Source of the DNA: an uncultured Victivallales bacterium
GTDB taxonomy: Bacteria; Verrucomicrobiota; Kiritimatiellia; UBA8416
Direction: 5' to 3'
Assembly: GCA_964497125.1 (NCBI GenBank)
Contig: CAZCDU010000007.1
Coordinates: forward strand, 5,503 to 69,502
DNA: 64,000 bases
Both the position numbers and the translations under genes were made by a program. A model generated the notes under the pieces. That model did no database searches. It was not told where the DNA came from and was given only the letters and a program-made list of their open reading frames with translations. Every line of letters starts with the position of its first letter. The first letter of the stretch is position 1. Below, piece by piece: positions 10,203 through 50,688 of the stretch.

Positions 10203-10251
10203 AGAGCTATGATAGGTAGGTGGGTTGGGTGTGTCGAGTGATAGTTGCTCC

Positions 10252-10332
10252 GGCATTTGATGCCCCTCTTGGCTGGAGCCTGCTTGCCGGGGACGGCTGC
10301 GCAGGCTAGGCCTGCGAGGGGCATCAAATGCC
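10252..10332. repeat. perfect 17-bp inverted repeat (GGCATTTGATGCCCCTC / GAGGGGCATCAAATGCC) with 47-nt spacer; each arm also contains the GGCAT-TTG-ATGCC mini-hairpin
   Basis: Arms at 10252-10268 and 10316-10332, read directly. Confidence 0.8.
10262..10292. repeat. 31-bp direct repeat unit Y copy 1 (GCCCCTCTTGGCTGGAGCCTGCTTGCCGGGG)
   Basis: Identical second copy at 10366-10396. Confidence 0.8.
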
Positions 10333-10348
10333 TTCGCTGGTGGTTGGG
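10311..10348. repeat. 38-bp direct repeat unit Z copy 1 (CCTGCGAGGGGCATCAAATGCCTTCGCTGGTGGTTGGG), followed by a G-tract-rich segment
   Basis: Second copy at 10610-10647 with 2-3 mismatches. Each copy is followed by G-runs (GGGGGAGAAGGGGAGG / GGGGTGAGGGGAGG). Confidence 0.75.
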
Positions 10349-10365
10349 GGAGAAGGGGAGGTCGT

Positions 10366-10396
10366 GCCCCTCTTGGCTGGAGCCTGCTTGCCGGGG
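10366..10396. repeat. 31-bp direct repeat unit Y copy 2
   Basis: Identical to 10262-10292. Confidence 0.8.
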
Positions 10397-10609
10397 GGGG
10401 CGAGAGTGCTCGGACTATGCGGGTGTGAAACTTGGAGACAGGAGAAGGTGGACGCCGGCGTCCCGACGGCGTTGCGCAAGACACGAGCCTCCTGTGAGGA
10501 AGAAGAGGACGATGTTCTCCACTGTCACACGACAGGCGCTCTATTTTCTCGACCGCGTCCGGAGGCCACGGTCCACCTTTCACACGGATAACAATGATTG
10601 AAGACCCGG

Positions 10610-10647
10610 CCTGCGAGGGGCATCAAATGCCTCCGCTGGTGGTGGGG
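10610..10647. repeat. 38-bp direct repeat unit Z copy 2
   Basis: See copy 1. 299 bp separate the two copies. Confidence 0.75.
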
Positions 10648-10687
10648 TGAGGGGAGGATGTGCGGTGGTTGGGGTGAGCGTGGGCTA

Positions 10688-11680
10688 CTACTTCTTCCTG
10701 GCGGTTGCGAGCCAGTGGGGCATGGGGGGGGGGAGCGGTGAGCACTGGAAATCGGTGAACCCGGCCTCACCGAGCCATCCTTCCAGCTCACGATCTGAGA
10801 AGACCCAGCCATTCTGGGCCGTGAGGGCCATGTTGACGGCGAAGAGGGCGGAGAATGCGGGTTGTGTGTGTGTGGCATCGGTCATCATGTCGAGAATGAA
10901 CACTTTGCCGCCCGGGACGAGAGCATCGTAGGCCTTGCTGAATAGGTTCGCGATACTCTCAGGAGATTCCTGGTGTAGCATGCCAAAGAAGGCAATGGCG
11001 TCTTGTCCTTGGGGAAACGGTGTGGTGCGGTAGTCACCGGGCAAGGTCTTGACGCGGTCCTGCATGCCCTGCTGTGCAATGAGCTCATCTGCTACCGCCA
11101 CGACGGCGGGTAGGTCAAGCACTGTGCATTCCAATTCCGAATTGGCCTGGGCCATGAGCACCGAGTAGGTGCCCGGCCCGCCGCCGACATCCAGCAGGGC
11201 TCGGCAGTCACTTAGGTCGAGCTGGGGGACCACGGAACGACCAATTCCCATCGCACGCCCATGCATCGACAGCACGAAGGTACGGGTGCGGTCAGCATCA
11301 TCACCAAGGTGGATTTCGGGGCGCTCAACAGGGCTGCCGGTCTGTGCGAGCTGCGTGAGTTTGCCCCAGGCGGGATAGACGTCACGATTGTAGCGGATCG
11401 CGCCACCAAGATAGGCGGGTGAGCTGGGAACAAGAAATGTTGCCGAATCGGGCGTGTTGGCATAGGTGTCGTCTGACTTCGTGAGCAGTTCCAGCGCTAC
11501 ACAGGCATCCAGAAGCAGCCTGGCACCGCGTGGATCAAGGCTGAGGTCCGCAGCAATGGCCTCCGCGGTCGCCCCGGGTGTGCGGTTCAAGCAGTCGAAA
11601 ATGCCGAGGTCGGAGGAGGCAAAAAGGACGCAGGAGTCATAGAAGGCAGAGGCCATATCAACGATGCGCGTAGAATTCAT
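10688..11680 (-). CDS. class I SAM-dependent O-methyltransferase (CrtF/COMT-like, with dimerisation domain)
   Basis: LDVGGGPG SAM motif. About 330 aa, typical of the O-MT family 2 architecture. Transcribed divergently from the ebo-like operon. Confidence 0.7.
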   Translation of the reverse strand: MNSTRIVDMASAFYDSCVLFASSDLGIFDCLNRTPGATAEAIAADLSLDPRGARLLLDACVALELLTKSDDTYANTPDSATFLVPSSPAYLGGAIRYNRDVYPAWGKLTQLAQTGSPVERPEIHLGDDADRTRTFVLSMHGRAMGIGRSVVPQLDLSDCRALLDVGGGPGTYSVLMAQANSELECTVLDLPAVVAVADELIAQQGMQDRVKTLPGDYRTTPFPQGQDAIAFFGMLHQESPESIANLFSKAYDALVPGGKVFILDMMTDATHTQPAFSALFAVNMALTAQNGWVFSDRELEGWLGEAGFTDFQCSPLPPPMPHWLATARKK

Positions 11681-11787
11681 GTCGGCTTTTCCTTTCGGGA
11701 GACGCGGCTGTGTTGCTAAGGTTTACGGTCTGAAGTACGTATATACCACACGAAGAGTGGAATTCAACGCATTGAACGAGAGAGTGA

Positions 11788-12630
11788 ATGACGATGACGA
11801 TTATTGAACCCCATATACATATGTATTCCCGGACGACGAACGACTATGAAGCGATGTATGCCGCAGGCATCCGGGCCTGCCTGGAACCGTCCTTCTGGAT
11901 GGGAGCAGACCGGCGTTACGCCGGGACATTCTTCGACTACTTCCAGCTCATCCTGGAGTTTGAGACCGTACGGGCCCGCCGCTTTGGAATCGACCATTTT
12001 GCCGCGGTCTCGCTGAATCCGAAGGAGGCAGAAGATACGGCCTTGGCGGACGAAGTCATTGATGGCCTGGGGGAGTACCTTGATCATCCGCGTTGCGTGG
12101 TGCTCGGGGAGATCGGTTTCAACAACCAGACCCCTAACGAGGAGCGGGCGTTCGTCCGTCAGCTTGAGATTGCCGCCGAACGCGATATGCCCGTGATTGT
12201 GCACCTTCCGCATGTCGACAAGCTGCGTGGCACGAAGCGTACGATCGAGATTATCCAGGAAATGGAGTTGAACCCGGACCACATTATCATTGATCACAAC
12301 ACGGAAGAGACCATCGCGCTGAGCCGTGAGTCCGGTTGCTGGTCGGGGATGACCGTGTATCCCATATCCAAGCTAACTCCCCAGCGCGTGTCTGGCATCA
12401 TCCGTGAGCATGGCAGCGATCGCATGATCGTGAATGGCTCAGCTGATTGGGGCGTTTCGGACCCATTGAGTCTCGTCAAAGTAGCCGACCACATGGCCGC
12501 CGACGGGCATTCAGAGGAGACCGTGCGCAAGTTGGTGTTCAGCAATGCCATGGCGTTCTATGGGCAGTCCGAAAAGTGGCAGCCCGAACTGGATCTGGTA
12601 CCCGTTGATCCTCGTGAGTTCCAGCGATGA
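11788..12630 (+). CDS. eboB: TatD-family metal-dependent hydrolase (EboB-like)
   Basis: N-terminal EPHIHM (HxH) motif and TIM-barrel hydrolase layout. First gene of the cluster. 4-bp overlap with the next gene. Confidence 0.6.
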   Translation: MTMTIIEPHIHMYSRTTNDYEAMYAAGIRACLEPSFWMGADRRYAGTFFDYFQLILEFETVRARRFGIDHFAAVSLNPKEAEDTALADEVIDGLGEYLDHPRCVVLGEIGFNNQTPNEERAFVRQLEIAAERDMPVIVHLPHVDKLRGTKRTIEIIQEMELNPDHIIIDHNTEETIALSRESGCWSGMTVYPISKLTPQRVSGIIREHGSDRMIVNGSADWGVSDPLSLVKVADHMAADGHSEETVRKLVFSNAMAFYGQSEKWQPELDLVPVDPREFQR

Positions 12631-13337
12631 GGGTGAAAGCCTGGTTGGAGCTGGTACGCGTTCCTAATCTACCCACGGTCCCCGGTGATCCGTTGGCTGG
12701 CTTTGCCCTGGCGAGTCTTGGCGCGGGCCGGGTTGATTGGGTGAGGGCATTGCCCGCCGTTGGGGCTTCGTTGCTGCTCTACATGGCCGGTATGATCTGG
12801 AACGACTGTGCTGACCTGGCGGAGGACCGGCGGGACAGACCACAGCGCCCGCTTGCCAGTGGCCGCATCCGTAGGCGCGATGCCATGGTTGTTGCGGGGT
12901 TAATGGCTGTTGCCGGTGTCGCGCTGGCCGGGCTTTCGGGGTGGGGCTCCATGGCCATGGCACTACTTCTCCTGTTGCTGGTCCTGGCCTATGATTTCGT
13001 TTCCCGGCGTATTCGTTTGCTCGGGTTTATCAATATGGGTGCCTGTCGGGGCGTTAGCCTGTTGCTCGGTGCTTCTGCGCTTGGGGTGCCTTCCCTGTAC
13101 CCGATCAGTGCAGCGGTGGGGGTATCCCTCTATATCGCGTGTGTCACGAGGCTTGCCTGCGATGAGGTCAATGGCCAGAGTCATGGGGTGAGTATTGGCC
13201 TCCTGATCCGCCTGCTTTTGGTCATCCAGGCGTGTCTGTGTGTTTCTGCAGGCTGGAGCGGGGTTGCTGTTGGGGCCGCGATCCTTCTAGGATGGCCGGT
13301 GTCGGCCTTGTTGAACAAACGGTTTTACGCGAGCTAA
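12627..13337 (+). CDS. eboC: UbiA-family aromatic/polyprenyl prenyltransferase (EboC-like)
   Basis: Multi-TM protein. Asp-rich motif NDCADLAEDRRD. Confidence 0.6.
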   Translation: MRVKAWLELVRVPNLPTVPGDPLAGFALASLGAGRVDWVRALPAVGASLLLYMAGMIWNDCADLAEDRRDRPQRPLASGRIRRRDAMVVAGLMAVAGVALAGLSGWGSMAMALLLLLLVLAYDFVSRRIRLLGFINMGACRGVSLLLGASALGVPSLYPISAAVGVSLYIACVTRLACDEVNGQSHGVSIGLLIRLLLVIQACLCVSAGWSGVAVGAAILLGWPVSALLNKRFYAS

Positions 13338-13386
13338 GCGATGGCATGACGCCGCAGTCGTTGCGTTGCTGACCGTGAGATGTGTG

Positions 13387-14682
13387 ATGACGAAAAAGAA
13401 ATTACTGGTCGTTCAAGTGGCGGGGCTGGGGTACGAGTTCCTCGCCTCTCACCATGGGGTCAAATGGGACGGTCTCACGTTTCATCCGTCCCAGGGAGTC
13501 TTTCCTGCCCTGACGTGCACTGCCCAGGCAACGTTCCGGACTGCCCGGGCTCCCGGCACGCATGGCATAGTCGCGAATGGGCTATGGGACCGGCGATATG
13601 CGAAAGCACGTTTCTGGGAGCAGTCGTCTCTGTTGGTCGACGGGGACCGTATATGGCAGGACTATCGTGAGGCCGGCAACAAGGTGGGCATGCTGTTCTG
13701 GCAGCAGAGCCTCGGCGAGGCCGTCGATACGGTTCTCTCGCCGGCCCCGATTCACAAACACCATGGGGGCATGATCCAGGATTGCTACGGCCTACCGGCC
13801 GGGCTCTATGACAAACTTCGGCGCCAGGTTGGACGTGGCTTTAACCTAATGCATTACTGGGGACCATTGGCATCGCATCGATCGTCTGCATGGATTACGG
13901 ATGCTACACTGGCCGTCATGTCGGACCCCCAGTTGGCACCGGACCTCTGTCTTACGTATCTGCCGATACTCGACTATGACCTGCAGCGGTTTGGCACGAA
14001 ACACCCCCGCAGCCGGCGGGCACTGGCACAGTTGCTTGGGCAGTTACGTACGTTGCGGGTGGGTGCCGTGACGCACGGATACGACGTGTTGATTTTCGGC
14101 GACTATGCGCTGGGTGATGTGACGGCGGCTCCCGTGGCTCCGAACCTGGTGCTGCGCAAGCAAGGCCTCCTTGGTGTTCGACAGGTTGGGCGCATGACAT
14201 ATCCTGATTTCCATAGCAGCACCGCATTCGCCATGGTCGACCACGAGATCGCGCATGTCTTTGTCCCCAATGCTTCCAACATTGACCGAGTACGCGCCGC
14301 CCTTGACGGGACGCCAGGCATTGCCGAAATCCTGGATCGCGAGCAGCAGACGGCGCGGGACGTCGGACATGCGAACGCTGGCGATTTGATGCTGGTGGCG
14401 GAAGAAGGATCCTGGATGACCTACCCGTGGTGGGAGAACCGCCGGGAGGCCCCCGACTATGCAGGACATGTCGACATTCACAGTAAGCCTGGGTACGATC
14501 CGTGTGAGTTGTTCTGGGGGTGGCCACCTGGTACAGTTAGCAAGAACTGTGAGCGAATACGTGGTACTCACGGCCGCATCGGGAACGGCCGGGAGATTGC
14601 GTGGGCTTCGAGTTGTATTGAGCAGGGTCCCACCTCTCTGGTAGAACTCTCGCTGGCTGTACAGCAATGGCTTGCCGGCTAA
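13387..14682 (+). CDS. eboF: alkaline-phosphatase superfamily, type I phosphodiesterase/nucleotide pyrophosphatase (EboF-like)
   Basis: N-terminal KKKLLVVQVAGLG...TCTAQATFRT metal-site Thr motif typical of NPP/AlkP enzymes. Start could be 13366. Confidence 0.55.
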   Translation: MTKKKLLVVQVAGLGYEFLASHHGVKWDGLTFHPSQGVFPALTCTAQATFRTARAPGTHGIVANGLWDRRYAKARFWEQSSLLVDGDRIWQDYREAGNKVGMLFWQQSLGEAVDTVLSPAPIHKHHGGMIQDCYGLPAGLYDKLRRQVGRGFNLMHYWGPLASHRSSAWITDATLAVMSDPQLAPDLCLTYLPILDYDLQRFGTKHPRSRRALAQLLGQLRTLRVGAVTHGYDVLIFGDYALGDVTAAPVAPNLVLRKQGLLGVRQVGRMTYPDFHSSTAFAMVDHEIAHVFVPNASNIDRVRAALDGTPGIAEILDREQQTARDVGHANAGDLMLVAEEGSWMTYPWWENRREAPDYAGHVDIHSKPGYDPCELFWGWPPGTVSKNCERIRGTHGRIGNGREIAWASSCIEQGPTSLVELSLAVQQWLAG

Positions 14683-14709
14683 TATGAAATCCAAGACCGA
14701 CAGATAGGT

Positions 14710-15966
14710 ATGAAACACTTTAAAGACAACAAGGACGTGGAGACGATTCAACAGACGTTCCAGGTCACGTTTGATTACTCGGTCAGCTTCACGTATGGCC
14801 TATTTGATGTCGGGAACCCGTTGCTTGCCGATACCATTGGCGATTGTCGCGGGGAAAGGGCCCACCGAATCCTCGTCTACGTAGACGATGGGGTCGCCGA
14901 GGCTCGCCCGGAGCTTCTTCAGCGTGTTCGCAATTACATTAAGCAGCACGGCGGTCAGCTTGAGCTTGTTGCGGACCCCATATTGGTTCCCGGCGGGGAA
15001 CGAGCCAAGAACGGCTGGAACATTGTGCGCAATATCATGTCGGATATCGGCAACGCGCATCTCGACCGGCATAGCTTCATCATGGCAATAGGCGGCGGCA
15101 GTGTGTTGGATAGCGTGGGCTTCGCGGCTTCCATCGTGCATCGTGGGATCCGGCTGATTCGGGTGCCAACCACGGTGCTGGCACAGAACGATGCCGGTGT
15201 TGGTGTGAAGACCGGCATGGATGAGCACGGGGCAAAGAACTTCGTTGGTACGTTTGCTCCACCGTATGCTGTGCTCGTTGATTTTGCTTTTCTCCCAACG
15301 CTCAAAGACAAGTATTGGTTCGGAGGCATTTCCGAGGCGTTTAAGGTTGCGCTGATCAAGGATGCTGCCTTCTTTACGTTTTTGGAGGAAAGCGCGGGAG
15401 CCCTGCGCGCACGCGATGCCGATGCGATTGAAACCGTCATAAAGCATACGGCTCGTCTGCACCTGGACCACATCCGTACCAGCGGCGATCCTTTCGAAAG
15501 CGGGACCGCACGTCCTCTCGATTTCGGGCACTGGGCCGCACACAAGCTCGAAGTCCTGTCCAACTACAGGCTGGGGCACGGTGAAGCCGTTGCGATCGGG
15601 ATTGCCCTGGATAGTCGCTATGCTGCATTGAGCGGACTTCTCACGGATGCCGAGGCCACTCGGATTGTGGATACGTTGCGTGCCGTTGGCTTGCCCGTAT
15701 GGGATACGCTACTTGAGTCTGTCACCGGTAGCGGTGAATTTGAGATTCTCAAGGGCCTCGAGGAGTTTCGCGAGCACTTGGGCGGGACACTGACGATAAC
15801 GCTGCCGCAGGGGATCGGGAACAAACTGGAAGTTCACACGATGGATACAGCGTTGATTTTGCAGGCAGCCGCACAGTTGAAGGATGCGTGCAGTCGTTCC
15901 TCTTCTCCTGTTGAGCACGGGACGGATGCATCCCGGTTGGCCGCGCTGGGTGGGAGCTCTGGCTGA
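14710..15966 (+). CDS. eboD: 3-dehydroquinate-synthase-like sugar phosphate cyclase (EboD-like; EEVS/DDGS-type)
   Basis: GGGSVLD...VPTT(V)LAQNDAGVGVKTG...HG...H motifs of the DHQS superfamily. I cannot discriminate DHQS from EEVS or DDGS from sequence alone. Confidence 0.65.
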   Translation: MKHFKDNKDVETIQQTFQVTFDYSVSFTYGLFDVGNPLLADTIGDCRGERAHRILVYVDDGVAEARPELLQRVRNYIKQHGGQLELVADPILVPGGERAKNGWNIVRNIMSDIGNAHLDRHSFIMAIGGGSVLDSVGFAASIVHRGIRLIRVPTTVLAQNDAGVGVKTGMDEHGAKNFVGTFAPPYAVLVDFAFLPTLKDKYWFGGISEAFKVALIKDAAFFTFLEESAGALRARDADAIETVIKHTARLHLDHIRTSGDPFESGTARPLDFGHWAAHKLEVLSNYRLGHGEAVAIGIALDSRYAALSGLLTDAEATRIVDTLRAVGLPVWDTLLESVTGSGEFEILKGLEEFREHLGGTLTITLPQGIGNKLEVHTMDTALILQAAAQLKDACSRSSSPVEHGTDASRLAALGGSSG

Positions 15967-17129
15967 TGATTGTGGGGCGGAACGCGTCGCAACACCTGAC
16001 TTACTGTCTCAATGTGCACCCGGGCGAGGACTGGGATGCCAACCTGGCTGCCATCCAGACGCACGCATTGGCTATTCGGGAGCGTGTTGCCCCGAAGCAG
16101 CCTTTTGGGTTGGGACTGCGCCTGAGCAATACAGCCGTCAATTCCCTGGCTGAGCCCAACACGCTGAGCGCGTTTCGGGAATTCCTCGACTCACACAGTC
16201 TCTACGCCTTCACGATCAACGGGTTTCCCTATGGCGCCTTTCACGGTACGAGGGTCAAAGAACGCGTCTATGCGCCGGATTGGCGGTCACCCGATCGCCT
16301 GGCCTATACCACACGGTTGGCGGACGTGCTGTCGGCACTTCTGCCGGAAGGTGTGCCGGGCAGCATCAGCACCGTGCCGGCCTCTTACCGGTCATGGATT
16401 CAGACCGACGAGGATCGTGACGCTATTGCCCGGAACCTGGCCCAGTGCGCATCGCACCTGGCGCAGATTGAGTCCCGAACAGGGCAGCACATTGCCCTGG
16501 CCCTGGAGCCGGAACCGGACTGTCTGTTTGATACGACGCAGCAGACTGTTGCCTTCTTTGAAGAGGTGCTGGCGGAGCACGCAGCGATAGGGAAACTCAA
16601 TGTCGACTGGCGGCGATACATTGGCGTCTGTTTCGACACGTGCCACCTTTCGGTGGTATTCGATGATCCCACCGAGGGATTGCTTGAGCTGAAGCGGCAC
16701 GGGATCTCTGTGCCGAAAGTCCAGATCAGTACAGCCCTTCGCGCGACAGGCGGGGGGGACACCGCGGCACGTTTGGAGGCGTTCGCGGACAACACCTACC
16801 TGCACCAGGTGCGGCTTCGTGGGGCCGATGGCACGCTGCGTTGTTTTCCAGACCTGACTGCGGAAACGCTCGCCGCCGTGGCGGCAGAGGAGCGGGGCGA
16901 GGTGCGCGTACATGTGCATGTTCCGCTGTACTTTGAAGAGTCCGGCTCCCTGCAGTCTACCGGCACAGACCTTTCCCCGCGCTTCTTTGAGGTCCTTGGC
17001 TCGTCCGGTATCCCTCATCTTGAGATCGAGACCTATACGTTCAGCGTTTTGCCCCCGGCGTTGTCTGCGTTACCGATTGAAGAGAGCGTCGAAAAAGAAT
17101 ATCAGTGGGTCCACGAGCGTATACGTTGA
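15966..17129 (+). CDS. eboE: xylose-isomerase-like TIM-barrel protein (EboE-like sugar phosphate isomerase/epimerase)
   Basis: TIM-barrel AP-endonuclease-2/xylose-isomerase-like pattern. Start overlaps the eboD stop (TGATG). Confidence 0.5.
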   Translation: MIVGRNASQHLTYCLNVHPGEDWDANLAAIQTHALAIRERVAPKQPFGLGLRLSNTAVNSLAEPNTLSAFREFLDSHSLYAFTINGFPYGAFHGTRVKERVYAPDWRSPDRLAYTTRLADVLSALLPEGVPGSISTVPASYRSWIQTDEDRDAIARNLAQCASHLAQIESRTGQHIALALEPEPDCLFDTTQQTVAFFEEVLAEHAAIGKLNVDWRRYIGVCFDTCHLSVVFDDPTEGLLELKRHGISVPKVQISTALRATGGGDTAARLEAFADNTYLHQVRLRGADGTLRCFPDLTAETLAAVAAEERGEVRVHVHVPLYFEESGSLQSTGTDLSPRFFEVLGSSGIPHLEIETYTFSVLPPALSALPIEESVEKEYQWVHERIR

Positions 17130-17186
17130 TTTTTGGCTGCGGAGGCATTAGAGTGCGACGCAGAAACAGCAATGGAGGAGATGAAA

Positions 17187-18409
17187 TGTTCAAAGTTCGG
17201 GTTGCAGTAGTTCTGGGGTTGGTCGCTCTGAGTGGTTGTGTGAGTCTGCCAAGAGGTGGGAGCAGAATAACGTTTCAGGATGATGTCGAGTTCTTAAGAA
17301 AGCACATTGATGTCGTCGTGCTTTCGGATAAGACCGCACGCAGCCAGGTGGCCGTTGCCCCGTCGTTGCAGGGGCGGGTGATGACAAGTACGGCGAACGG
17401 CGGATCCGGGGATAGCTACGGCTGGATCAACCGCGAACTGATCGCATCCGGCGAGACGGTAGAGCATATCAATGTCTATGGTGGGGAAGACCGGTTCTGG
17501 ATTGGCCCTGAGGGTGGGCAATTCTCAATCTTCTTTGCCAAGGGGGTTCCCTTCGACCTGGAGCACTGGTTCACACCGGCGCCGATTGACACGGAACCGT
17601 TTGGATTGGTGTCGCAGGATGGTCGCAAGCTCACGCTCTGCAAGAACATGGAGTTGAAGAACTACTCGGGAACGGAATTCTCGCTTCGCGTTGATCGGGA
17701 AGTACGCGTGCTGGAGCAGTCTGAGATTGCCAAAGCGTTGGGGATTGAGCCGACCCCGGAAGTCCGAAGCGTCGGTTTCGAGTCACGCAACTCCATGATG
17801 AACAGCGGTACCGTCCCCTGGAGTCGGGAGACAGGACTGCTTTCGATTTGGATCCTGGGAATGTTCAACCCGTCGCCTTCCACGACCGTTGTTGTGCCGT
17901 TCGTGACCGGGGATGAGAAGCTCCTTGGGCCCATCGTGAACGACGCCTATTTCGGTAAGGTCCCTGCAGAACGGCTCGTCGTTGGTGACGGAGTGATGTA
18001 CTTCAGCGGGGATGGTCAGTATCGGAGCAAGATCGGCCTTCTACCGCAGCGCGCAAAGCCGGTGGTTGGCAGCTATGACGCCCAGCAGAAGGTCTTGACG
18101 CTGGTGCAGTACAACAAGCCAAACGGGACACGGGACTACGTGAACTCAATGTGGGAATTGCAGGAAGAGCCTTATCGTGGTGACGTTGTGAATTCCTACA
18201 ATGATGGTCCTCCGGACCCCGAGTCGGAACCTCTCGGGCCGTTCTATGAATTGGAGACGTCATCGCCGGCCGCCAAACTCGGTGTCGGTGGGAGCATGAC
18301 GCATATTCATCGCACGATCCACCTGACGGGCCCCGAGGCCGCTCTGGATCCCATTGCGCGCAAGTTGCTCGGCGTGGGTATTGATGACATCAAAACCGCG
18401 CTTCGTTAG
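17187..18409 (+). CDS. lipoprotein of unknown function (lipobox ALSGC)
   Basis: GGAGGAG RBS. Signal peptide with lipobox. 407 aa with no recognisable catalytic motif. Immediately downstream of eboE on the same strand. Confidence 0.55.
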
Positions 18410-18478
18410 GGGGCTGCTCTGGGTGCCTCGGGGAATAGCTCAGCCGCCACACATCTGAGAAGCGGCATTGTCGCTCTC

Positions 18479-19351
18479 GTGGGTTGTGCCAACGTGGGCA
18501 AGTCCTCCCTGCTGAACCGCATTCTGCAGGACAAGGTCAGTATTGTCAGCAATGTGGCGCAGACGACGCGTAACATGGTCCGCGGCATCCACAGTGATGA
18601 ACGCGGTCAGCTTGTCTTTCTCGATACTCCCGGTGTCCACAAGGCCTCCTACGACCTCGGTCGGATCATGAACCGTGCGGCCCGGGCCTCAATCTCCGGG
18701 TCGGACGTGGCTTTGCTCGTCCTGGATCCCTCCACGCATGTGTGGGACGAGGCCGAAGGCTGGATGCGCAAGCTCCTGCGGGCCGAGGACAATCATGTTG
18801 TCTTCGTGTTGAACAAGCATGACCTGGCGTGGCGATTTGAGCAGGACTATCGTGACTGCTGGCAACGCGTTTGTGAAGAGGCGGGCATGACGCGTCCCGT
18901 CGTCTGGATGACAGTCTCGGCCCAAACCGGCGAAGGGGTGGAAGACCTGCTGGCGTTGCTTTTCGATGCCGTGCCGTGTGGCCCCCCTCTCTTCCCTGAA
19001 GACATGCTGACTGATTTTCCGCGTAAGATCGCTATTGCCGATGTCGTCCGCGAGAAATACTTCAAGGTGTTGCGGGATGAAGTGCCGCATGACTTGGCCG
19101 TTCGCGTCGGGGATATTCGGGAAGAAGGCAACCACTGGACAATTGAAGCTGACATTCTCGTGAACCGTCCGTCCCAGAAGGGCATCGTGATTGGCCACAA
19201 GGGACGGTTGCTTCGCAAAGTTAAACGAGAAGCAACTCTGGATATTGAAGGAATGTACGATTGTGAGCTCGACCTTGCATTGTGGGTTAAGGTCGAGAAG
19301 AACTGGACGAAGAACCACTGGATTCTGAAACAGTTGGGATATGTTGAGTAG
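18479..19351 (+). CDS. era: GTPase Era (5' end unresolved: conserved N-terminal residues lie upstream of any canonical start codon)
   Basis: G1 GCANVGKSS, G2 TTR, G3 DTPG, G4 NKHD and the C-terminal KH domain. The frame is open back to the TAG at 18407 and encodes SGIVALVG (conserved Era beta-1 strand), but carries no ATG/GTG/TTG. Confidence 0.85.
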   Translation: MGCANVGKSSLLNRILQDKVSIVSNVAQTTRNMVRGIHSDERGQLVFLDTPGVHKASYDLGRIMNRAARASISGSDVALLVLDPSTHVWDEAEGWMRKLLRAEDNHVVFVLNKHDLAWRFEQDYRDCWQRVCEEAGMTRPVVWMTVSAQTGEGVEDLLALLFDAVPCGPPLFPEDMLTDFPRKIAIADVVREKYFKVLRDEVPHDLAVRVGDIREEGNHWTIEADILVNRPSQKGIVIGHKGRLLRKVKREATLDIEGMYDCELDLALWVKVEKNWTKNHWILKQLGYVE

Positions 19352-19365
19352 AGGCTGAAGCAGGT

Positions 19366-20754
19366 ATGACGTTAGCAGAGCTGATTTCGACGATTGATGG
19401 CTATGTTTGGGGGGTGCCGCTGATGGTGCTCCTGGTCGGGACTGGGGTGTACCTTACAGTCAGGATGCGCCTGGTTCAGTTTCGTGGGTTCGCCCATGCC
19501 ATCCGTGTTCTGCGAGGGGGGTACGATTCCGAGGGGGACAAAGGGGAGATCTCCCATTTCCAGGCACTGTCGGCCGCGCTGTCGGCCACGATTGGTACAG
19601 GCAATATCGTCGGTGTGGCGGCCGCCATCCTGGCCGGCGGGCCGGGGGCGGCTTTTTGGATGTGGGTCACGGCGTTAGTCGGCATGGCCACCAAGTTCAC
19701 GTCCTGTACGTTGGCCGTTCATTTCCGCCGCATCGACGAGCACGGGGAAGCCCACGGTGGCCCGATGCACTTCATCGAGCTCGGCATGGGCCGGCGGTTC
19801 AAGTGGCTGGCGGTCTTGTTCGCTTTCTTCACGGTCACGGCGAGTTTCGGTATTGGGAATATGTTCCAGATCAATAACTGTGCTGTGAGTCTAAATGCCC
19901 TGGTGCGGCCTGGATCGGAGCCGACACCGGGATTCAGTTTGTTGGTCGGTGTGGTTGTAGCCGTGCTCGTCGCCTGCGTGATCCTCGGTGGGATCAAGCG
20001 AATCGGACGTTTTGCATCCGAGCTCGTTCCCGTGATGTGTTTCATCTACGTGGCCGGCGCTCTCTATGTTCTGATCCGCAATGCACCTGCGATTCCCGGT
20101 GCATTCAACACGATCTTCTACCATGCGTTCCACAAGCCAGAGGCGCTTGCCGGTGGCCTGCTTGGTACCGTGATCCGGTCCGGCGTGGCGCGCGGTCTCT
20201 TCTCCAACGAGGCCGGCATGGGATCGGCCGCCATGATGTTCGGTGCGGCTCGGACAAAGGAGCCCGTGCGCGAGGGGCTCGTGGCCATGCTGGGACCCTT
20301 TGTTGATACCATTGTGATCTGCACCATGACGGCGCTGGTGATTGTTACAACGGGAGCCTACGAGGTCTGTTCCATCAAGGGCGAGTTGACAGGGAGAGCG
20401 TTTGAGCTTGGGATGGGGCATCCCATTGGCGCCAGGATCGTTTCTGTCGGGGTGATTCTGTTCTCATTCTCGACCCTGGTTTCCTGGTCCTACTACGGTG
20501 ACCGCGCCGCCGACTATCTCTTCGGGCGCCGTGCCGTGTTGCCCTATCGCCTTATCTATATCGGGTTCGTCGTACTCGGAGCCGTTGTTAGTATTGGAAC
20601 CATCATCGACTTCTGCGATGCGATGAACGGCTTGATGGCGGTGCCAAACCTGGTTGCTCTCATCGTGCTTTCACCGTTGGTGGCCAAGCTGACGCGGGAT
20701 TACTTCAAGCGCATGCGTTCCGCCGGTGCTCAAAAGTCTGCTGCAGATAGTTGA
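19366..20754 (+). CDS. alanine/glycine:cation symporter (AGCS family)
   Basis: AGCS hallmark N-terminus (GVPLMVLLVGTGVYLT...FQALSAALSATIGTGNIVGVA). About 11 TM segments. Confidence 0.8.
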   Translation: MTLAELISTIDGYVWGVPLMVLLVGTGVYLTVRMRLVQFRGFAHAIRVLRGGYDSEGDKGEISHFQALSAALSATIGTGNIVGVAAAILAGGPGAAFWMWVTALVGMATKFTSCTLAVHFRRIDEHGEAHGGPMHFIELGMGRRFKWLAVLFAFFTVTASFGIGNMFQINNCAVSLNALVRPGSEPTPGFSLLVGVVVAVLVACVILGGIKRIGRFASELVPVMCFIYVAGALYVLIRNAPAIPGAFNTIFYHAFHKPEALAGGLLGTVIRSGVARGLFSNEAGMGSAAMMFGAARTKEPVREGLVAMLGPFVDTIVICTMTALVIVTTGAYEVCSIKGELTGRAFELGMGHPIGARIVSVGVILFSFSTLVSWSYYGDRAADYLFGRRAVLPYRLIYIGFVVLGAVVSIGTIIDFCDAMNGLMAVPNLVALIVLSPLVAKLTRDYFKRMRSAGAQKSAADS

Positions 20755-20800
20755 CGAATGCCACAGACCCCGTATACTTTTTGTCAAGGGACAGAAGTAT

Positions 20801-22147
20801 ATGGAACCCGAAGATCCTAAAACACTATTGCGCGCATACTGGCGTGAGCAATCCGAGCGGACGCTCCCAGTTGGAAAGCTGACGGGCTGGCTCGGGGTCA
20901 CAACGCTTCCCGCCTTCATGATCCAAGACATCTTCTTTGTACAGACGGGCTGGGCAACCCTGTTTCGCCTGTTGGGAATCGCGGCATCGATCCTCTTTCT
21001 CGTGAAGGCGCACACAACGTTCCGACATGATGTCAGGAAGGTTATCCACTATCACTCGCTGGTTCTTGTCATGCTCATGGTGCAGATCTGCGGGTTAACC
21101 TATGTTCTGTGGCGAAACGGTTCTGCGACCTCCCATTACGAGGTCGGCACAACGCAAGGCATCACGGTCGTGACGCTTGTTGTCTTCCTGCTTGCGAAAG
21201 GTGCGCGGCGGTTCCTGCCGCTCATTACGGGCATACCCTTTGGCATTCTCGCAATCCTAATGCTGACAACCGCTAACCGACCTCTTGGGGATTTGGCGCT
21301 GTTCACGAATCCCGGGATTGTCGTGGTTGTTGTGGCTCTGTATTCCCGGTCACGCGAGAAGGTCACCTTTTCGGAGTTTTCGATGCGCCGGCTAGCGTCG
21401 CGTCACGAAGAAGAACTTGAGCTGTCTGCGAAGAGGCTGGCCCGCACGAACGCGGAGCTGCGTGGGTTTGCCTACACGGCATCGCATGATCTACAGCAGC
21501 CGTTGCGGTCGATCTCCGGTTTTCTTGACCTGATCCGTGACGAGCTGAGCGGCGCGGGTGTGTTGAAGGATACCGTTGCGGACCACTTCTCACGGGTGAC
21601 GGGCGCTGCACAGCGGATGTCCGAGCTTGTCGACGCCCTGTTGGCCTATTCGCGAGCGACTTCGCGCGATGCCGTATTCGTCAATGTGGACCTGGACCAG
21701 GTCTTGGATGACGTGAAGAGCGATTTGAGTTCAGCGATTCAGAGTTCTAACGCGACGATTGATAGCACGCCGCTGCCCCAGGTGCGGGGCGATATCCATC
21801 AGCTTGCATCTGTTCTGCAGAATCTCATCACGAATTCGATTAAATATGCGAAAGACGATGAAGCGCCGCTTATCCGAATCAGGGCTATCGATGAAGAGGA
21901 TTCTGTCCGCATTTCGATTACCGATAACGGAATTGGATTCGACCCTGAGAATGCCTCTGCTCTCTTCGAGGCCTTCAAACGGCTGCACAAATCGGGAGAG
22001 TTTGAGGGTGTTGGGCTTGGGTTGGCAATATGCCGCAAGTATGTCGAGGGCCATGGGGGAGAGATTGGGGCGACCGGGGAGCCGGGGCTGGGGGCCACGT
22101 TCTGGTTCACACTTGCCAAAGATCCTGACGGTGCCGGTCAAGGTTGA
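20801..22147 (+). CDS. membrane sensor histidine kinase (paralog 1)
   Basis: About 6 TM helices at the N-terminus. H-box ASHDLQQPLRSISGF. HATPase_c N/G1/G2 boxes. The start overlaps the transporter stop region; 20726 is an alternative start. Confidence 0.7.
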   Translation: MEPEDPKTLLRAYWREQSERTLPVGKLTGWLGVTTLPAFMIQDIFFVQTGWATLFRLLGIAASILFLVKAHTTFRHDVRKVIHYHSLVLVMLMVQICGLTYVLWRNGSATSHYEVGTTQGITVVTLVVFLLAKGARRFLPLITGIPFGILAILMLTTANRPLGDLALFTNPGIVVVVVALYSRSREKVTFSEFSMRRLASRHEEELELSAKRLARTNAELRGFAYTASHDLQQPLRSISGFLDLIRDELSGAGVLKDTVADHFSRVTGAAQRMSELVDALLAYSRATSRDAVFVNVDLDQVLDDVKSDLSSAIQSSNATIDSTPLPQVRGDIHQLASVLQNLITNSIKYAKDDEAPLIRIRAIDEEDSVRISITDNGIGFDPENASALFEAFKRLHKSGEFEGVGLGLAICRKYVEGHGGEIGATGEPGLGATFWFTLAKDPDGAGQG

Positions 22148-22224
22148 GCCGGTGGTTCGCCTGATACGCTCCCTCAATGATGTTTCTGTGGGGAGGACTC
22201 GTGTCTATTCCATTGCTGTATTCC

Positions 22225-23604
22225 ATGAACGCGGGAGGCTCGATACTCGATGGCGCTACCGGTGAAGAACGGGAAGCCCTTCTGATCGCGTATCGCAGTG
22301 AGCAGGCGGCGCAGACGCTTTCCATTACGCGATTCAGCGCATGGGTTGGCATCCCCGCTATACTTTTCCTGATGTTGCAGGATACCTTTGTTACACGCAT
22401 CGGGTGGATTTCTCTACTTCGCCTGATTGGGCTTGTCCCGTGCTTCTTCGTCCTCGTCAAGGCGTATACCGTTTTTGAACGCGACACGACGACTGTGATT
22501 CGTGACCACTGTATCATGCTCTCTCTCGTCATGACGCAGATCTGCCTCATATCTTACGTGTTGTGGCGTCTTGATCCCGAAGGCATCAACTATCAGCAGG
22601 GGACGACACACGGCATCACAACAGCGATTCTTGTCGCGTTCCTGGTAATTGGCGGCGGACGGCGATTCCTCCTTCTGGTCCTGGGCATTCCCTTTCTCAT
22701 CCTGACGATCTTGCTGTTGACAGCTTCCGGTAGGGAATTGGCGGATCTCTCGCTATTCGTTATTCCCGCGGTGACTCTCGGCACGCTGTCGATTTACTCG
22801 GCATCGCGCGAAGACGTCGTCTTTTCTGAGTTTGCCATGCGCCGACTTGCTGCCCGGCAGGAGGAAAAGCTCAAGAGGTCCGCTGAAGCGCTATCGCGCA
22901 CCAACGCTGAGCTGCGCGGGTTTGCCCATACCGCCTCGCATGATCTGAAACAACCGCTCCTGTCGATTTCCGGATTCCTGGACATCATCCACCATGAGTT
23001 GGGCCAGGAAGGGCTGCTGAAGGACAGCATCGCCGACTTCTTTGGGCGGGTACAGGGGGCGGCACACCGAATGTCTGAGCTCATTGATTCCATGTTGGTC
23101 TATTCCCGTGCAACATCACGTGAAACGGTGTTCTCTATAGTGGATCTGAACCAGCTCCTGGATGCTGTGAAGGATGATCTGCACTCAGCCATTCAGAACT
23201 CTGGTGCCACGATCGAGAGCACACCACTTCCCAACGTGCATGGCGACTTCTCCCAGCTCGCATGCGTTCTTCAGAATCTCATCGCAAACTCGATTAAATA
23301 CGCGAAAGCGGGTGAAGCGCCATTGATCCGGATTAGCGCCAGTGATGAGGAGAACGTTGTCCGCATCGTGATCACCGACAACGGGATCGGCTTTGATCCC
23401 GGGTATGCCTCTGCACTTTTCGATGCCTTCCGAAGATTGCACGAGGCGGGCGACCATGAGGGGGTCGGGCTTGGACTGGCAATATGCCGTAAGTACATCG
23501 AACGTCATGGCGGAGAGATTGGGGCAACCGGCGAGCCGGGGGTGGGAGCCACGTTCTGGTTCACGGTCGCCAAGCAGTCGGCCTGCAGCACGGAGTCGGG
23601 CTAG
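22225..23604 (+). CDS. membrane sensor histidine kinase (paralog 2, tandem duplicate of 20801-22147)
   Basis: Same architecture as paralog 1 and collinear with it along its full length (e.g. ASHDLKQPLLSISGF). Confidence 0.7.
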   Translation: MNAGGSILDGATGEEREALLIAYRSEQAAQTLSITRFSAWVGIPAILFLMLQDTFVTRIGWISLLRLIGLVPCFFVLVKAYTVFERDTTTVIRDHCIMLSLVMTQICLISYVLWRLDPEGINYQQGTTHGITTAILVAFLVIGGGRRFLLLVLGIPFLILTILLLTASGRELADLSLFVIPAVTLGTLSIYSASREDVVFSEFAMRRLAARQEEKLKRSAEALSRTNAELRGFAHTASHDLKQPLLSISGFLDIIHHELGQEGLLKDSIADFFGRVQGAAHRMSELIDSMLVYSRATSRETVFSIVDLNQLLDAVKDDLHSAIQNSGATIESTPLPNVHGDFSQLACVLQNLIANSIKYAKAGEAPLIRISASDEENVVRIVITDNGIGFDPGYASALFDAFRRLHEAGDHEGVGLGLAICRKYIERHGGEIGATGEPGVGATFWFTVAKQSACSTESG

Positions 23605-50612: not shown

Positions 50613-50688
50613 TGGAGCCAGTTGAGGGACTCGAACCCCCGACCTAGTGATTACAAATCACTTGCTCTGCCAACTGAGCTAAACTGGC
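50613..50688 (-). tRNA. tRNA-Thr (anticodon UGU)
   Basis: Cloverleaf reconstructed by hand: 7-bp acceptor GCCAGTT/AACTGGC, anticodon loop TTTGTAA, T-arm GGTTCGAGTCC, encoded CCA. Confidence 0.8.

Follow-up and report, generated by a model that had tools for sequence, protein, structure and literature searches.

A PVC-type ebo gene cluster with a divergent methyltransferase gene in a Victivallales genome: a probable source of a thallusin-type, possibly methylated product

Introduction

The ebo genes form one of the most widely conserved gene clusters whose role was long unclear, and they have only just been tied to thallusin, a morphogen that acts on seaweeds at picomolar concentrations. The canonical cluster, eboABCDEF, occurs in Bacteroidota, cyanobacteria and eustigmatophyte plastids and as the EDB cluster of Pseudomonas fluorescens. 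Phylum-specific gene orders have already been published, as has the lack of eboA in Planctomycetota, and the literature describes eboA as either dispensable or, in that phylum, missing. An unreviewed 2026 preprint ties eboB, eboC, eboE and eboF to thallusin/saccharoquinoline synthesis (bioRxiv 10.64898/2026.05.21.724671): deletion of eboB, eboC, eboE or eboF abolishes thallusin, the compound is made solely by ebo-positive strains, Nostoc included, and the thallusin gene set is reported in Verrucomicrobiota and Planctomycetota. In the literature, EboC farnesylates an ester of 6,7,8-trihydroxyquinaldic acid, with aspartate being incorporated, Ubi-297/EboC farnesylates 8-hydroxyquinaldic acid and EboD is reported as a synthase converting mannose 6-phosphate to DEI. 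An earlier note on the locus described here had held the product to be still unknown and its cyclitol to derive from sedoheptulose 7-phosphate; both statements are outdated by these reports. We have analysed this locus in a 64 kb stretch of DNA (the window) from an uncultured Victivallales bacterium.

Results and discussion

Locus organization

The open reading frames and their profile matches (Table 1) agree with the gene positions and families given in the earlier note, and the divergent spacer, taken there for a promoter region, is exactly 107 bp long. The description of five translationally coupled genes holds for two junctions only, eboB/eboC (a 4 bp ATGA overlap) and eboD/eboE (a 1 bp overlap), whereas eboC/eboF, eboF/eboD and eboE/lipoprotein are separated by gaps of 49, 27 and 56 bp, respectively. 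All genes of the locus are under purifying selection, the dN/dS values being merely indicative because dS is saturated. Four blocks of the spacer (CGGCTTTTCCTTTCGGG, TTGCTAAGGTT, ACGTATATACCACA and CAACGCATTG) are retained relative to the related species L085, even though the genes on either side have reached saturation at synonymous sites. The 107 bp contain no match to the sigma-70 consensus and no intrinsic terminator signal, and in the region neither kind of signal exceeded the level of shuffled sequence. No riboswitch or other known RNA was detected in the region by Rfam, whose sole match was a tRNA at 50616–50688.

Table 1. Features of the ebo locus, numbered from the first nucleotide of the window.
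Feature	Positions	Strand	Supporting match or remark
Methyltransferase (Methyltransf_2, 330 aa)	10688–11680	minus	PF00891 95.5 bits, PF08100 65.1 bits
Divergent methyltransferase/eboB spacer, 107 bp	11681–11787	.	Blocks conserved in a related species
eboB, TatD-like metal-dependent hydrolase	11788–12630	+	PF01026
eboC, UbiA-type prenyltransferase, short 236 aa form	12627–13337	+	NF035940 130.5 bits
eboF, nucleotide pyrophosphatase/alkaline phosphatase superfamily	13387 (ATG)–14682	+	PF01663 120 bits
eboD, DHQS-like sugar phosphate cyclase	14710–15966	+	NF004852 550 bits
eboE, xylose-isomerase-like TIM barrel	15966–17129	+	NF035939 431 bits
DUF6786 lipoprotein, 407 aa	17186–18409	+	GGAGGAG Shine–Dalgarno upstream, L-S-G-C lipobox

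Identity and layout of the ebo cluster

By homology, the locus is classified as a genuine ebo-type cluster in the version of the PVC superphylum, eboB-C-F-D-E without eboA. That it encodes the ebo/EDB enzyme set, as claimed earlier, is borne out by full-length alignment of all five proteins to members of canonical eboA-containing clusters. Profile searches, which had been proposed as a check, place EboE and EboD above curated NCBIfam cut-offs but EboC below the EboC cut-off. EboE scores 431.4 bits on NF035939 (TIM_EboE; cut-off 250) and covers profile positions 1–379 of 379. The score of EboD on NF004852 (PRK06203 type; cut-off 333) is level with the 552 bits of EboD from a canonical eboA-containing cluster (L053), to which it is 47–51% identical over the full length; it is assigned as EboD because of this orthology. 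NCBIfam has no dedicated model for EboB or EboF, and their homology was judged by tblastn. EboB, encoded by the most conserved gene within the cluster, is 69–89% identical to its counterparts in other PVC B-C-F-D-E clusters and 42–47% identical, at full length, to those encoded beside verified eboA in Rhodothermales and Acetobacteraceae. EboF shares 53–71% identity with its PVC counterparts and, along almost its whole length, 35–40% with EboF of the canonical clusters in the same two groups. The window thus resembles canonical eboABCDEF in its five enzyme families, its co-oriented and tightly packed genes and the curated models that EboE and EboD exceed; it differs in lacking eboA, in gene order, in the extra divergent methyltransferase, in the identity of EboB and EboF (only 35–47%) and in an EboC that is about 57 aa shorter and below the curated cut-off.

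The reported absence of eboA was upheld. A profile HMM derived from verified EboA proteins (the seed, EboA of L053, scores 179 bits on NF035938) gave no match at E ≤ 10 in a six-frame translation of the whole window, whether in another frame or elsewhere in this stretch, and no match in any PVC locus either. A small conserved ORF (c15) that lies upstream of type-2 eboB was considered as an eboA substitute and rejected, since it is missing from the window.

The gene order, formerly regarded as an unusual rearrangement, is the standard PVC layout: of 80 species-level ebo loci, 19 have B-C-F-D-E without eboA and 38 have F-D-E. The identical order, again without eboA, recurs in MAGs of Victivallales, Lentisphaerae, Verrucomicrobia, Kiritimatiellae and Phycisphaerae (L002–L011, L028, L036–L040 and others), whose ebo proteins are 46–89% identical to those of the window; in most of these clusters eboC is long and no methyltransferase gene lies less than 10 kb away. 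The locus is therefore a variant of a known system, one among many similar clusters in PVC genomes. It had been called an undescribed variant of an orphan pathway, a description that suits neither a layout typical of the lineage nor a pathway now tied to thallusin.

The short EboC

EboC lacks approximately 55–60 residues, equivalent to about two transmembrane helices, compared with ordinary EboC (236 versus about 290–300 aa). It is a conserved short form, which the earlier note overlooked. Its match to NF035940 (cut-off 250 bits) spans profile positions 1–208 of 292. Long PVC EboC (L003 and L005) is likewise below this cut-off, at 128–147 bits, and type-2 EboC (L146 and L056) is above it, at 313–343 bits. 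On the SCO3242 family model, both long and short PVC EboC reach about the same score as on NF035940, and the best two family matches of the window protein are EboC and SCO3242.

The divergent methyltransferase

The divergent gene is predicted to encode a SAM-dependent methyltransferase of the Methyltransf_2 (COMT/CrtF) type with an N-terminal dimerization domain. The PF00891 catalytic domain, the PF08100 dimerization domain, the SAM motif and the conserved histidine are all present, and VGGGPG and His236 (in LHQES) are invariant across 84 homologues. The protein does not pass the BchU/CrtF equivalog model TIGR02716 (85 bits versus a cut-off of 276). Its closest solved structures are DsyB (7wdq), RedM (8tji), SibL (4qvg) and ASMT (4a6d), and the closest solved relatives use small aromatic or amino-acid-derived substrates. 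The dimerization and Rossmann domains, the SAM motif and the histidine of LH(D/Q) are common to DsyB, RedM, SibL, ASMT, DnrK and the window protein, but its bit scores to any solved Methyltransf_2 enzyme are only about 100–140.

The methyltransferase gene recurs as an accessory to ebo clusters. Among 80 metagenomic loci of methyltransferase homologues, an ebo gene lies within 500 bp in 14 and within 6 kb in 16; where at least 10 kb of flank is available, the latter holds for nine of 31 loci. Against a generous null rate of 0.0045, the adjacency has a P of ~6e-22, and it takes at least seven different arrangements in at least ten subclades of the methyltransferase tree, including the co-directional operons methyltransferase-eboC-eboD-x-eboB-eboE-eboF and eboE-methyltransferase. 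This neighbourhood comparison supports the earlier proposal, the association being far above chance. Seen from the ebo side, the gene is present in only four of 80 loci. Four PVC clusters with the order of the window (L001, L006, L010 and L011) carry it; in L006, L010 and L011 it is located downstream of eboE, whereas in the window it is upstream and divergent. Two clades of the family occupy other gene contexts. The ebo/thallusin papers searched discuss no methyltransferase, the sole mention being a generic COG0500 SmtA row in a supplementary gene-cluster table of the preprint.

Proposed pathway

The window contains eboB, eboC, eboE and eboF, whose presence in one genome is the criterion used in the preprint, together with eboD, and it lacks eboA as do Planctomycetota. 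The set is scattered in the tested planctomycetes and clustered in the window. We consider it probable, with some reserve, that this PVC ebo cluster gives a product of the saccharoquinoline/thallusin type, which a dedicated divergent SAM-dependent methyltransferase may methylate, and that the DUF6786 gene belongs with era. EboD would convert mannose 6-phosphate to the cyclitol DEI, as shown for EboD elsewhere and expected here by orthology. EboB, EboE and EboF, the genes for which are essential in Stieleria, would then use L-aspartate to turn the cyclitol into a polyhydroxylated quinoline-2-carboxylate. Membrane-bound EboC would farnesylate, and possibly cyclize, the quinoline ring to a drimane meroterpenoid of the saccharoquinoline/thallusin type, a step shown for long EboC and presumed for the short form. 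Finally, the methyltransferase may act on a hydroxyl of the ring, either in an intermediate or in the finished compound, to give a methylated analogue.

Alternative explanations

The cluster might instead build a membrane-bound prenylated cyclitol that carries metabolites across the inner membrane, as suggested by the cytoplasmic accumulation of scytonemin monomer in Nostoc ebo mutants and by the NCBIfam name 'metabolite traffic protein' for EboE and EboA. We regard this as unlikely in place of a thallusin-type signal: in the preprint, ebo-positive strains (Nostoc among them) are the only thallusin producers, the four deletions abolish the compound and EboC prenylates quinolines rather than cyclitols, and in the window no scytonemin-like cargo genes lie beside the cluster. 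Less likely still is that the short eboC is decaying, so that the cluster is heading for loss or yields only an unprenylated quinoline or cyclitol. The length of 236 aa against about 295, the sub-threshold profile match ending at position 208 and the lowest conservation in the cluster (59–65% identity to relatives) would fit such decay; however, alignment shows an internal in-frame deletion with the C-terminal WPxS..KRFYAS retained, short homologues fall into at least 25 independent sequence clusters from several clades, and the protein retains each of the 30 residues that are invariant among aligned PVC EboC sequences, NDxxDxxxD (Asn59-Asp60..Asp63..Asp67) and Glu180 among them. Moreover, pN (0.25–0.27) is far below pS (0.72–0.74), and the AF2 model is a compact UbiA fold with a pLDDT of 94. 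On the same features, a frameshifted or truncated pseudogene was rejected.

For the flanking genes, the question is whether they belong to the pathway at all. It is a real, if minority, possibility that the methyltransferase is merely an unrelated neighbour from a methyltransferase–nadE block and that ebo landed between this block and DUF6786–era. The methyltransferase-x-nadE synteny is retained in the window, L085, L001/L093, L094 and L096; L094, from the window's own clade, has trpF/trpB rather than ebo on the other side of the methyltransferase, and 64 of the 80 homologues have no ebo gene in the available DNA. Chance insertion is nevertheless at odds with the recurrence of the adjacency across arrangements and subclades, co-directional operon positions included, and with the conserved blocks in the spacer. 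The lipoprotein was correctly described as a 407 aa protein encoded after eboE with a GGAGGAG ribosome-binding site. It has an L-S-G-C lipobox; its N-terminus (MFKVRVAVVLGLVALSGC) comprises a signal peptide and the lipobox cysteine, and Gly17 and Cys18 are invariant in 29 homologues. Its co-orientation close behind eboE, its strong ribosome-binding site and the same arrangement in the sister species L085 might suggest that the pathway uses it to deliver or process its product in the envelope, but we find this highly improbable. None of the 80 ebo loci from other species carries the gene, and its co-occurrence with ebo does not extend beyond the genus-level lineage of the window; homologues of 73–76% identity (L088 and L089) keep era downstream with no ebo genes upstream, those of Sedimentisphaerales come after a giant CotH/LTD protein, and the modelled mutarotase-like fold points to carbohydrate binding. 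Our search found no paper on DUF6786. Neighbourhood comparison from both sides and the fold lead us to reject the ebo partnership put forward earlier, and envelope delivery by the lipoprotein has no support because the protein travels with era and not with ebo. We thus assign it as a probable bystander that goes with era, outside the ebo pathway.

Implications

The analysis eliminates the lipoprotein as a false lead and sets right an outdated assumption about the substrate. Both the naturally minimized EboC and the recurrent tailoring methyltransferase would be useful handles: the former would reveal which helices a UbiA-type enzyme can do without, and the substrate of the latter would identify a pathway intermediate. 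More speculatively, the methyltransferase may be an unrecognized facultative seventh ebo gene which, together with the eight-helix short EboC, leads to a methylated saccharoquinoline-type meroterpenoid distinct from thallusin. If so, a methyl group on the catechol-like ring would prevent the oxidative cleavage from which thallusin arises, and PVC bacteria not associated with algae would make a different signal molecule.

Gene content and identity of the cluster

ORF mapping together with Pfam and NCBIfam scans confirmed the genes and coordinates listed in the earlier note, which are collected with neighbouring features in the table. The G+C content is even throughout the region. The description of the genes as translationally coupled is partly right, because start and stop codons overlap only at eboB/eboC (ATGA) and eboD/eboE (TGATG); the remaining junctions are short gaps.

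Features of the ebo region and its surroundings in the window
Feature	Coordinates	Strand	Basis or remark
Repeat-rich non-coding spacer between a small membrane-protein ORF and the methyltransferase 3' end	10203-10687		486 bp
Methyltransf_2 methyltransferase, 330 aa, N-terminal dimerisation domain	10688-11680	-	ORF map, Pfam, NCBIfam
Divergent spacer, methyltransferase/eboB			107 bp
TatD-like (eboB)	11788-12630	+	ORF map, Pfam/NCBIfam
UbiA-like (eboC), 236 aa	12627-13337	+	ORF map, Pfam/NCBIfam
Nucleotide pyrophosphatase/alkaline phosphatase-like (eboF)	13387-14682	+	ATG at 13387
DHQS-like (eboD)	14710-15966	+	Pfam/NCBIfam
EboE TIM barrel	15966-17129	+	NCBIfam
DUF6786 lipoprotein, 407 aa	17186-18409	+	GGAGGAG ribosome-binding site; N-terminal MFKVRVAVVLGLVALSGC lipoprotein signal
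DUF6786-era pair	17186-19351
Two neighbouring histidine-kinase genes	20726-23604		After an alanine/sodium symporter, downstream of era

With 431 bits, EboE clears the cut-off of its curated equivalog model (250), and the cyclase EboD clears that of NF004852/PRK06203 (550 bits, cut-off 333), on which EboD of a canonical eboA-containing Rhodothermales cluster scores 552 bits. NCBIfam has no dedicated model for the TatD-like (EboB) and phosphodiesterase-like (EboF) proteins, which can be aligned almost end to end with the products of the eboB and eboF genes flanking verified eboA in Rhodothermales and Acetobacteraceae (42-47% and 35-40% identity, respectively). The top models for the UbiA-like protein are the SCO3242 family (139 bits) and EboC (130.5 bits), and it lies under both cut-offs. 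Since the profile searches and alignments place the genes with the ebo families, the region is, judged by sequence, an ebo cluster, as had been proposed.

Compared with the sister species (L085), eboB is by far the best-conserved gene of the cluster (89.6% amino-acid identity, pN 0.056) and eboC the least (65%, pN 0.25). The spacer beyond the methyltransferase 3' end contains two direct repeats of 54 nt (10309, 10608), two of 37 nt (10261, 10365) and three copies of a hairpin-containing 17-mer, GGCATTTGATGCCCCTC, with no copy elsewhere in the window. According to the called-gene list of the locus, no histidine-kinase-associated response-regulator gene adjoins the histidine-kinase pair.

Gene order and the absence of eboA

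An EboE scan with one genome per species yielded 80 loci, the closest of which belong to MAGs labelled Victivallales and Verrucomicrobia (67-68% identity). These matches place the window in a PVC-group bacterium, probably one of the Lentisphaerota, that lacks a close species-level representative. Identical DNA is present in several metagenome assemblies, and the sister species (~82% identity) is syntenic over the whole region. The order B-C-F-D-E occurs in 19 of the 80 loci; a further 10 show C-F-D-E and another 9 show F-D-E, part of them cut by contig ends; their labels are Victivallales, Lentisphaerae, Verrucomicrobia, Kiritimatiellae, Phycisphaerae and Planctomycetota. The Rhodothermales order differs (B..D-E-F), as does that of Acetobacteraceae (B-E-F). 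An EboA HMM matched Rhodothermales and Acetobacteraceae loci, two further loci and no PVC locus; it also gave no match at E<=10 in a six-frame translation of the whole window, which bears out the reported lack of eboA. Given these order counts and the lack of EboA in any PVC locus, the eboA-less B-C-F-D-E layout is the norm for the PVC superphylum and not an unusual rearrangement, as it had first appeared. In the literature, gene orders are phylum-specific and eboA is missing in Planctomycetota.

In the closest species-level relative (L001:4998-7109, and L093) the methyltransferase is directly divergent from eboC; no eboB lies within the available 10 kb, so it must be elsewhere in the genome. 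A second type of eboB (type 2) is 39-45% identical to that of the window. Immediately upstream of it, 18 loci carry a conserved ORF of ~90-100 aa (L013, L016, L047, L050, L051, L054, L055, L058, L064, L066, L111, L114, L135, L136, L146, L151, L152 and L161; for example L050:8889-9152 and L161:14457-14759). This ORF has no Pfam or NCBIfam match and is not EboA, and neither the window nor the B-C-F-D-E clusters have it; the ORF may encode an unrecognised small ebo-associated protein.

A short form of EboC

The 236-aa length of the UbiA product was overlooked in the earlier note. Aligned with PVC EboC, the window protein has a clean internal deletion of ~55-60 residues, right after a conserved ..A-x-x-E.. 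and ahead of the conserved IGxLIRxLxxxQA...WPxS...KRFYAS tail. A decaying gene might be suspected from such a deletion; the evidence is against it. The short form recurs in six comparison loci (L001, L002, L034, L041, L076 and L085) and in no fewer than 25 other sequence clusters (228-257 aa), and the window EboC keeps all 30 positions that are invariant in an alignment of 36 short and long EboC sequences, including N59-D60-x2-D63-x3-D67 and E180. Its AlphaFold model is highly confident (pLDDT 94, pTM 0.91), with about eight helices, and resembles the UbiA-family structures 7bpu, 4tq4 and 4od5, and pN (0.25-0.27) is far under pS (0.72-0.74). Rather than a pseudogene, short EboC is a conserved minimised subfamily.

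Long PVC EboC proteins also fall under the curated EboC cut-off, and their scores on the SCO3242 family model are about the same. Because even these fail the cut-off, whereas EboC from the other ebo lineage passes it, the PVC clusters form a deep branch within the ebo system.

METHYLTRANSFERASE

The methyltransferase keeps its SAM motif, with an invariant His at the LHQES position. Among solved structures, DsyB, RedM, SibL and ASMT come nearest; their substrates are small aromatic or amino-acid-derived compounds. The label 'CrtF/COMT-type' holds at the family level and fails for the BchU/CrtF equivalog (85 bits, cut-off 276). Available ebo and thallusin papers discuss no methyltransferase; the sole trace of one is a row with the generic label COG0500 in one supplementary table.

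Orthologues with 64-79% identity adjoin ebo clusters in L001, where the gene is divergent as in the window, and in L006, L010 and L011, where it lies downstream of eboE on the same strand. A metagenome scan from the methyltransferase side gave 80 loci with homologues 57-84% identical; in 14 of these an ebo gene is no farther than 500 bp away and in 16 no farther than 6 kb, and where 10 kb or more of flank is available the fraction is 9 of 31. Against a generous null rate of 0.0045 the association is above chance (P ~6e-22), in agreement with the earlier note. The gene is found divergent from C-F-D-E, from B-C-F or from eboD, after B-C-D-E or D-x-B-E-F, between eboC and a convergent F-E-B-x-D, and at the head of an operon (methyltransferase-eboC-eboD-x-eboB-eboE-eboF). 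In a neighbour-joining tree the ebo-adjacent copies are spread over at least 10 subclades. This recurrence in varied arrangements and subclades is good evidence that the methyltransferase is functionally linked to ebo.

The link is not obligatory. Two large clades have other contexts: one a block of NAD_binding_4 reductase, FAD_binding_4, UbiE/COQ5 methyltransferase, amino-acid permease, methyltransferase, glyoxalase-fold and redoxin-like genes (without ebo in L104, L106, L116, L117, L120, L122, L126, L132, L133 and L142), the other a putative regulator of sigma-54 type, recognised by eye in its sequence. In the window's own clade the methyltransferase is also syntenic with nadE, and in a relative, L094, its other side faces trp genes, not ebo. 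For this lineage it is possible that the gene is a bystander tied to nadE, but the many independent ebo adjacencies are hard to square with that reading. The 107-bp divergent spacer retains four sequence blocks relative to the sister species, at which distance synonymous sites are saturated.

A radical-SAM protein of ~425 aa adjoins the methyltransferase and/or ebo in six metagenomic loci (L136, L146, L154, L157, L158 and L172; for example L154:4298-5578). A secreted-protein pair recurs beside the methyltransferase and ebo in 3-4 loci (L129:3732-5641, L135, L143:3303-... and L100). One member has a weak squalene-hopene cyclase C-terminal domain match, below the Pfam cut-off, which is of interest because the drimane part of thallusin has no known terpene cyclase.

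DUF6786 lipoprotein

The 407-aa protein belongs to DUF6786 (538 bits) and has more than 8000 unusually conserved homologues; it is 66-87% identical to those labelled Planctomycetota, Sedimentisphaerales and Verrucomicrobia. Participation in the ebo pathway had been suggested for it; the co-occurrence test is against this, as none of the 80 ebo loci has a homologue. In the two nearest species the whole region, DUF6786 included, is syntenic with the window, so these do not count as independent evidence. In the next relatives (L088 and L089; 76% and 73% identity) DUF6786 is followed by era and preceded by unrelated genes, with no ebo. By the co-occurrence test set in the earlier note, the proposed association of the lipoprotein with ebo is refuted. 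DUF6786-era is a conserved pair despite everything upstream differing; in Sedimentisphaerales a giant CotH/LTD protein (1500-1580 aa) precedes DUF6786. The predicted model has a galactose-mutarotase-like fold; the protein is an envelope lipoprotein of predicted carbohydrate-binding type, and its gene travels with era.

Proposed pathway

The view that the ebo product is unknown is out of date, and its sedoheptulose-7-P origin is an idea that traces to older proposals. EboC homologues farnesylate 8-hydroxyquinaldic acid. A preprint of May 2026 reports that thallusin production follows the ebo genes over five phyla and is lost in Stieleria maiorica when eboB, C, E or F is deleted, that the quinoline-derived part takes up L-aspartate, that a 6,7,8-trihydroxyquinaldic acid ester is farnesylated by EboC proteins of three phyla, and that core ebo genes are found in Verrucomicrobiota and Planctomycetota, among others (bioRxiv 10.64898/2026.05.21.724671). 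The same preprint weakens the older model, in which the cluster builds a metabolite-traffic carrier.

The best-supported reading, by orthology to the published work, is that EboD would make a cyclitol, which EboB, EboE and EboF with aspartate would convert to a hydroxylated quinoline carboxylate; EboC would prenylate this to a saccharoquinoline/thallusin-type compound. In this lineage the methyltransferase may methylate a hydroxyl of an intermediate or of the product, a step suggested by the linkage of the genes and by what is known of the family's chemistry. Taken by itself, the cluster adds another member to a known and by now partly explained system, and its layout is the usual one for PVC. 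Two features are new compared with the literature searched: an accessory methyltransferase that recurs with ebo and a short EboC that is conserved.
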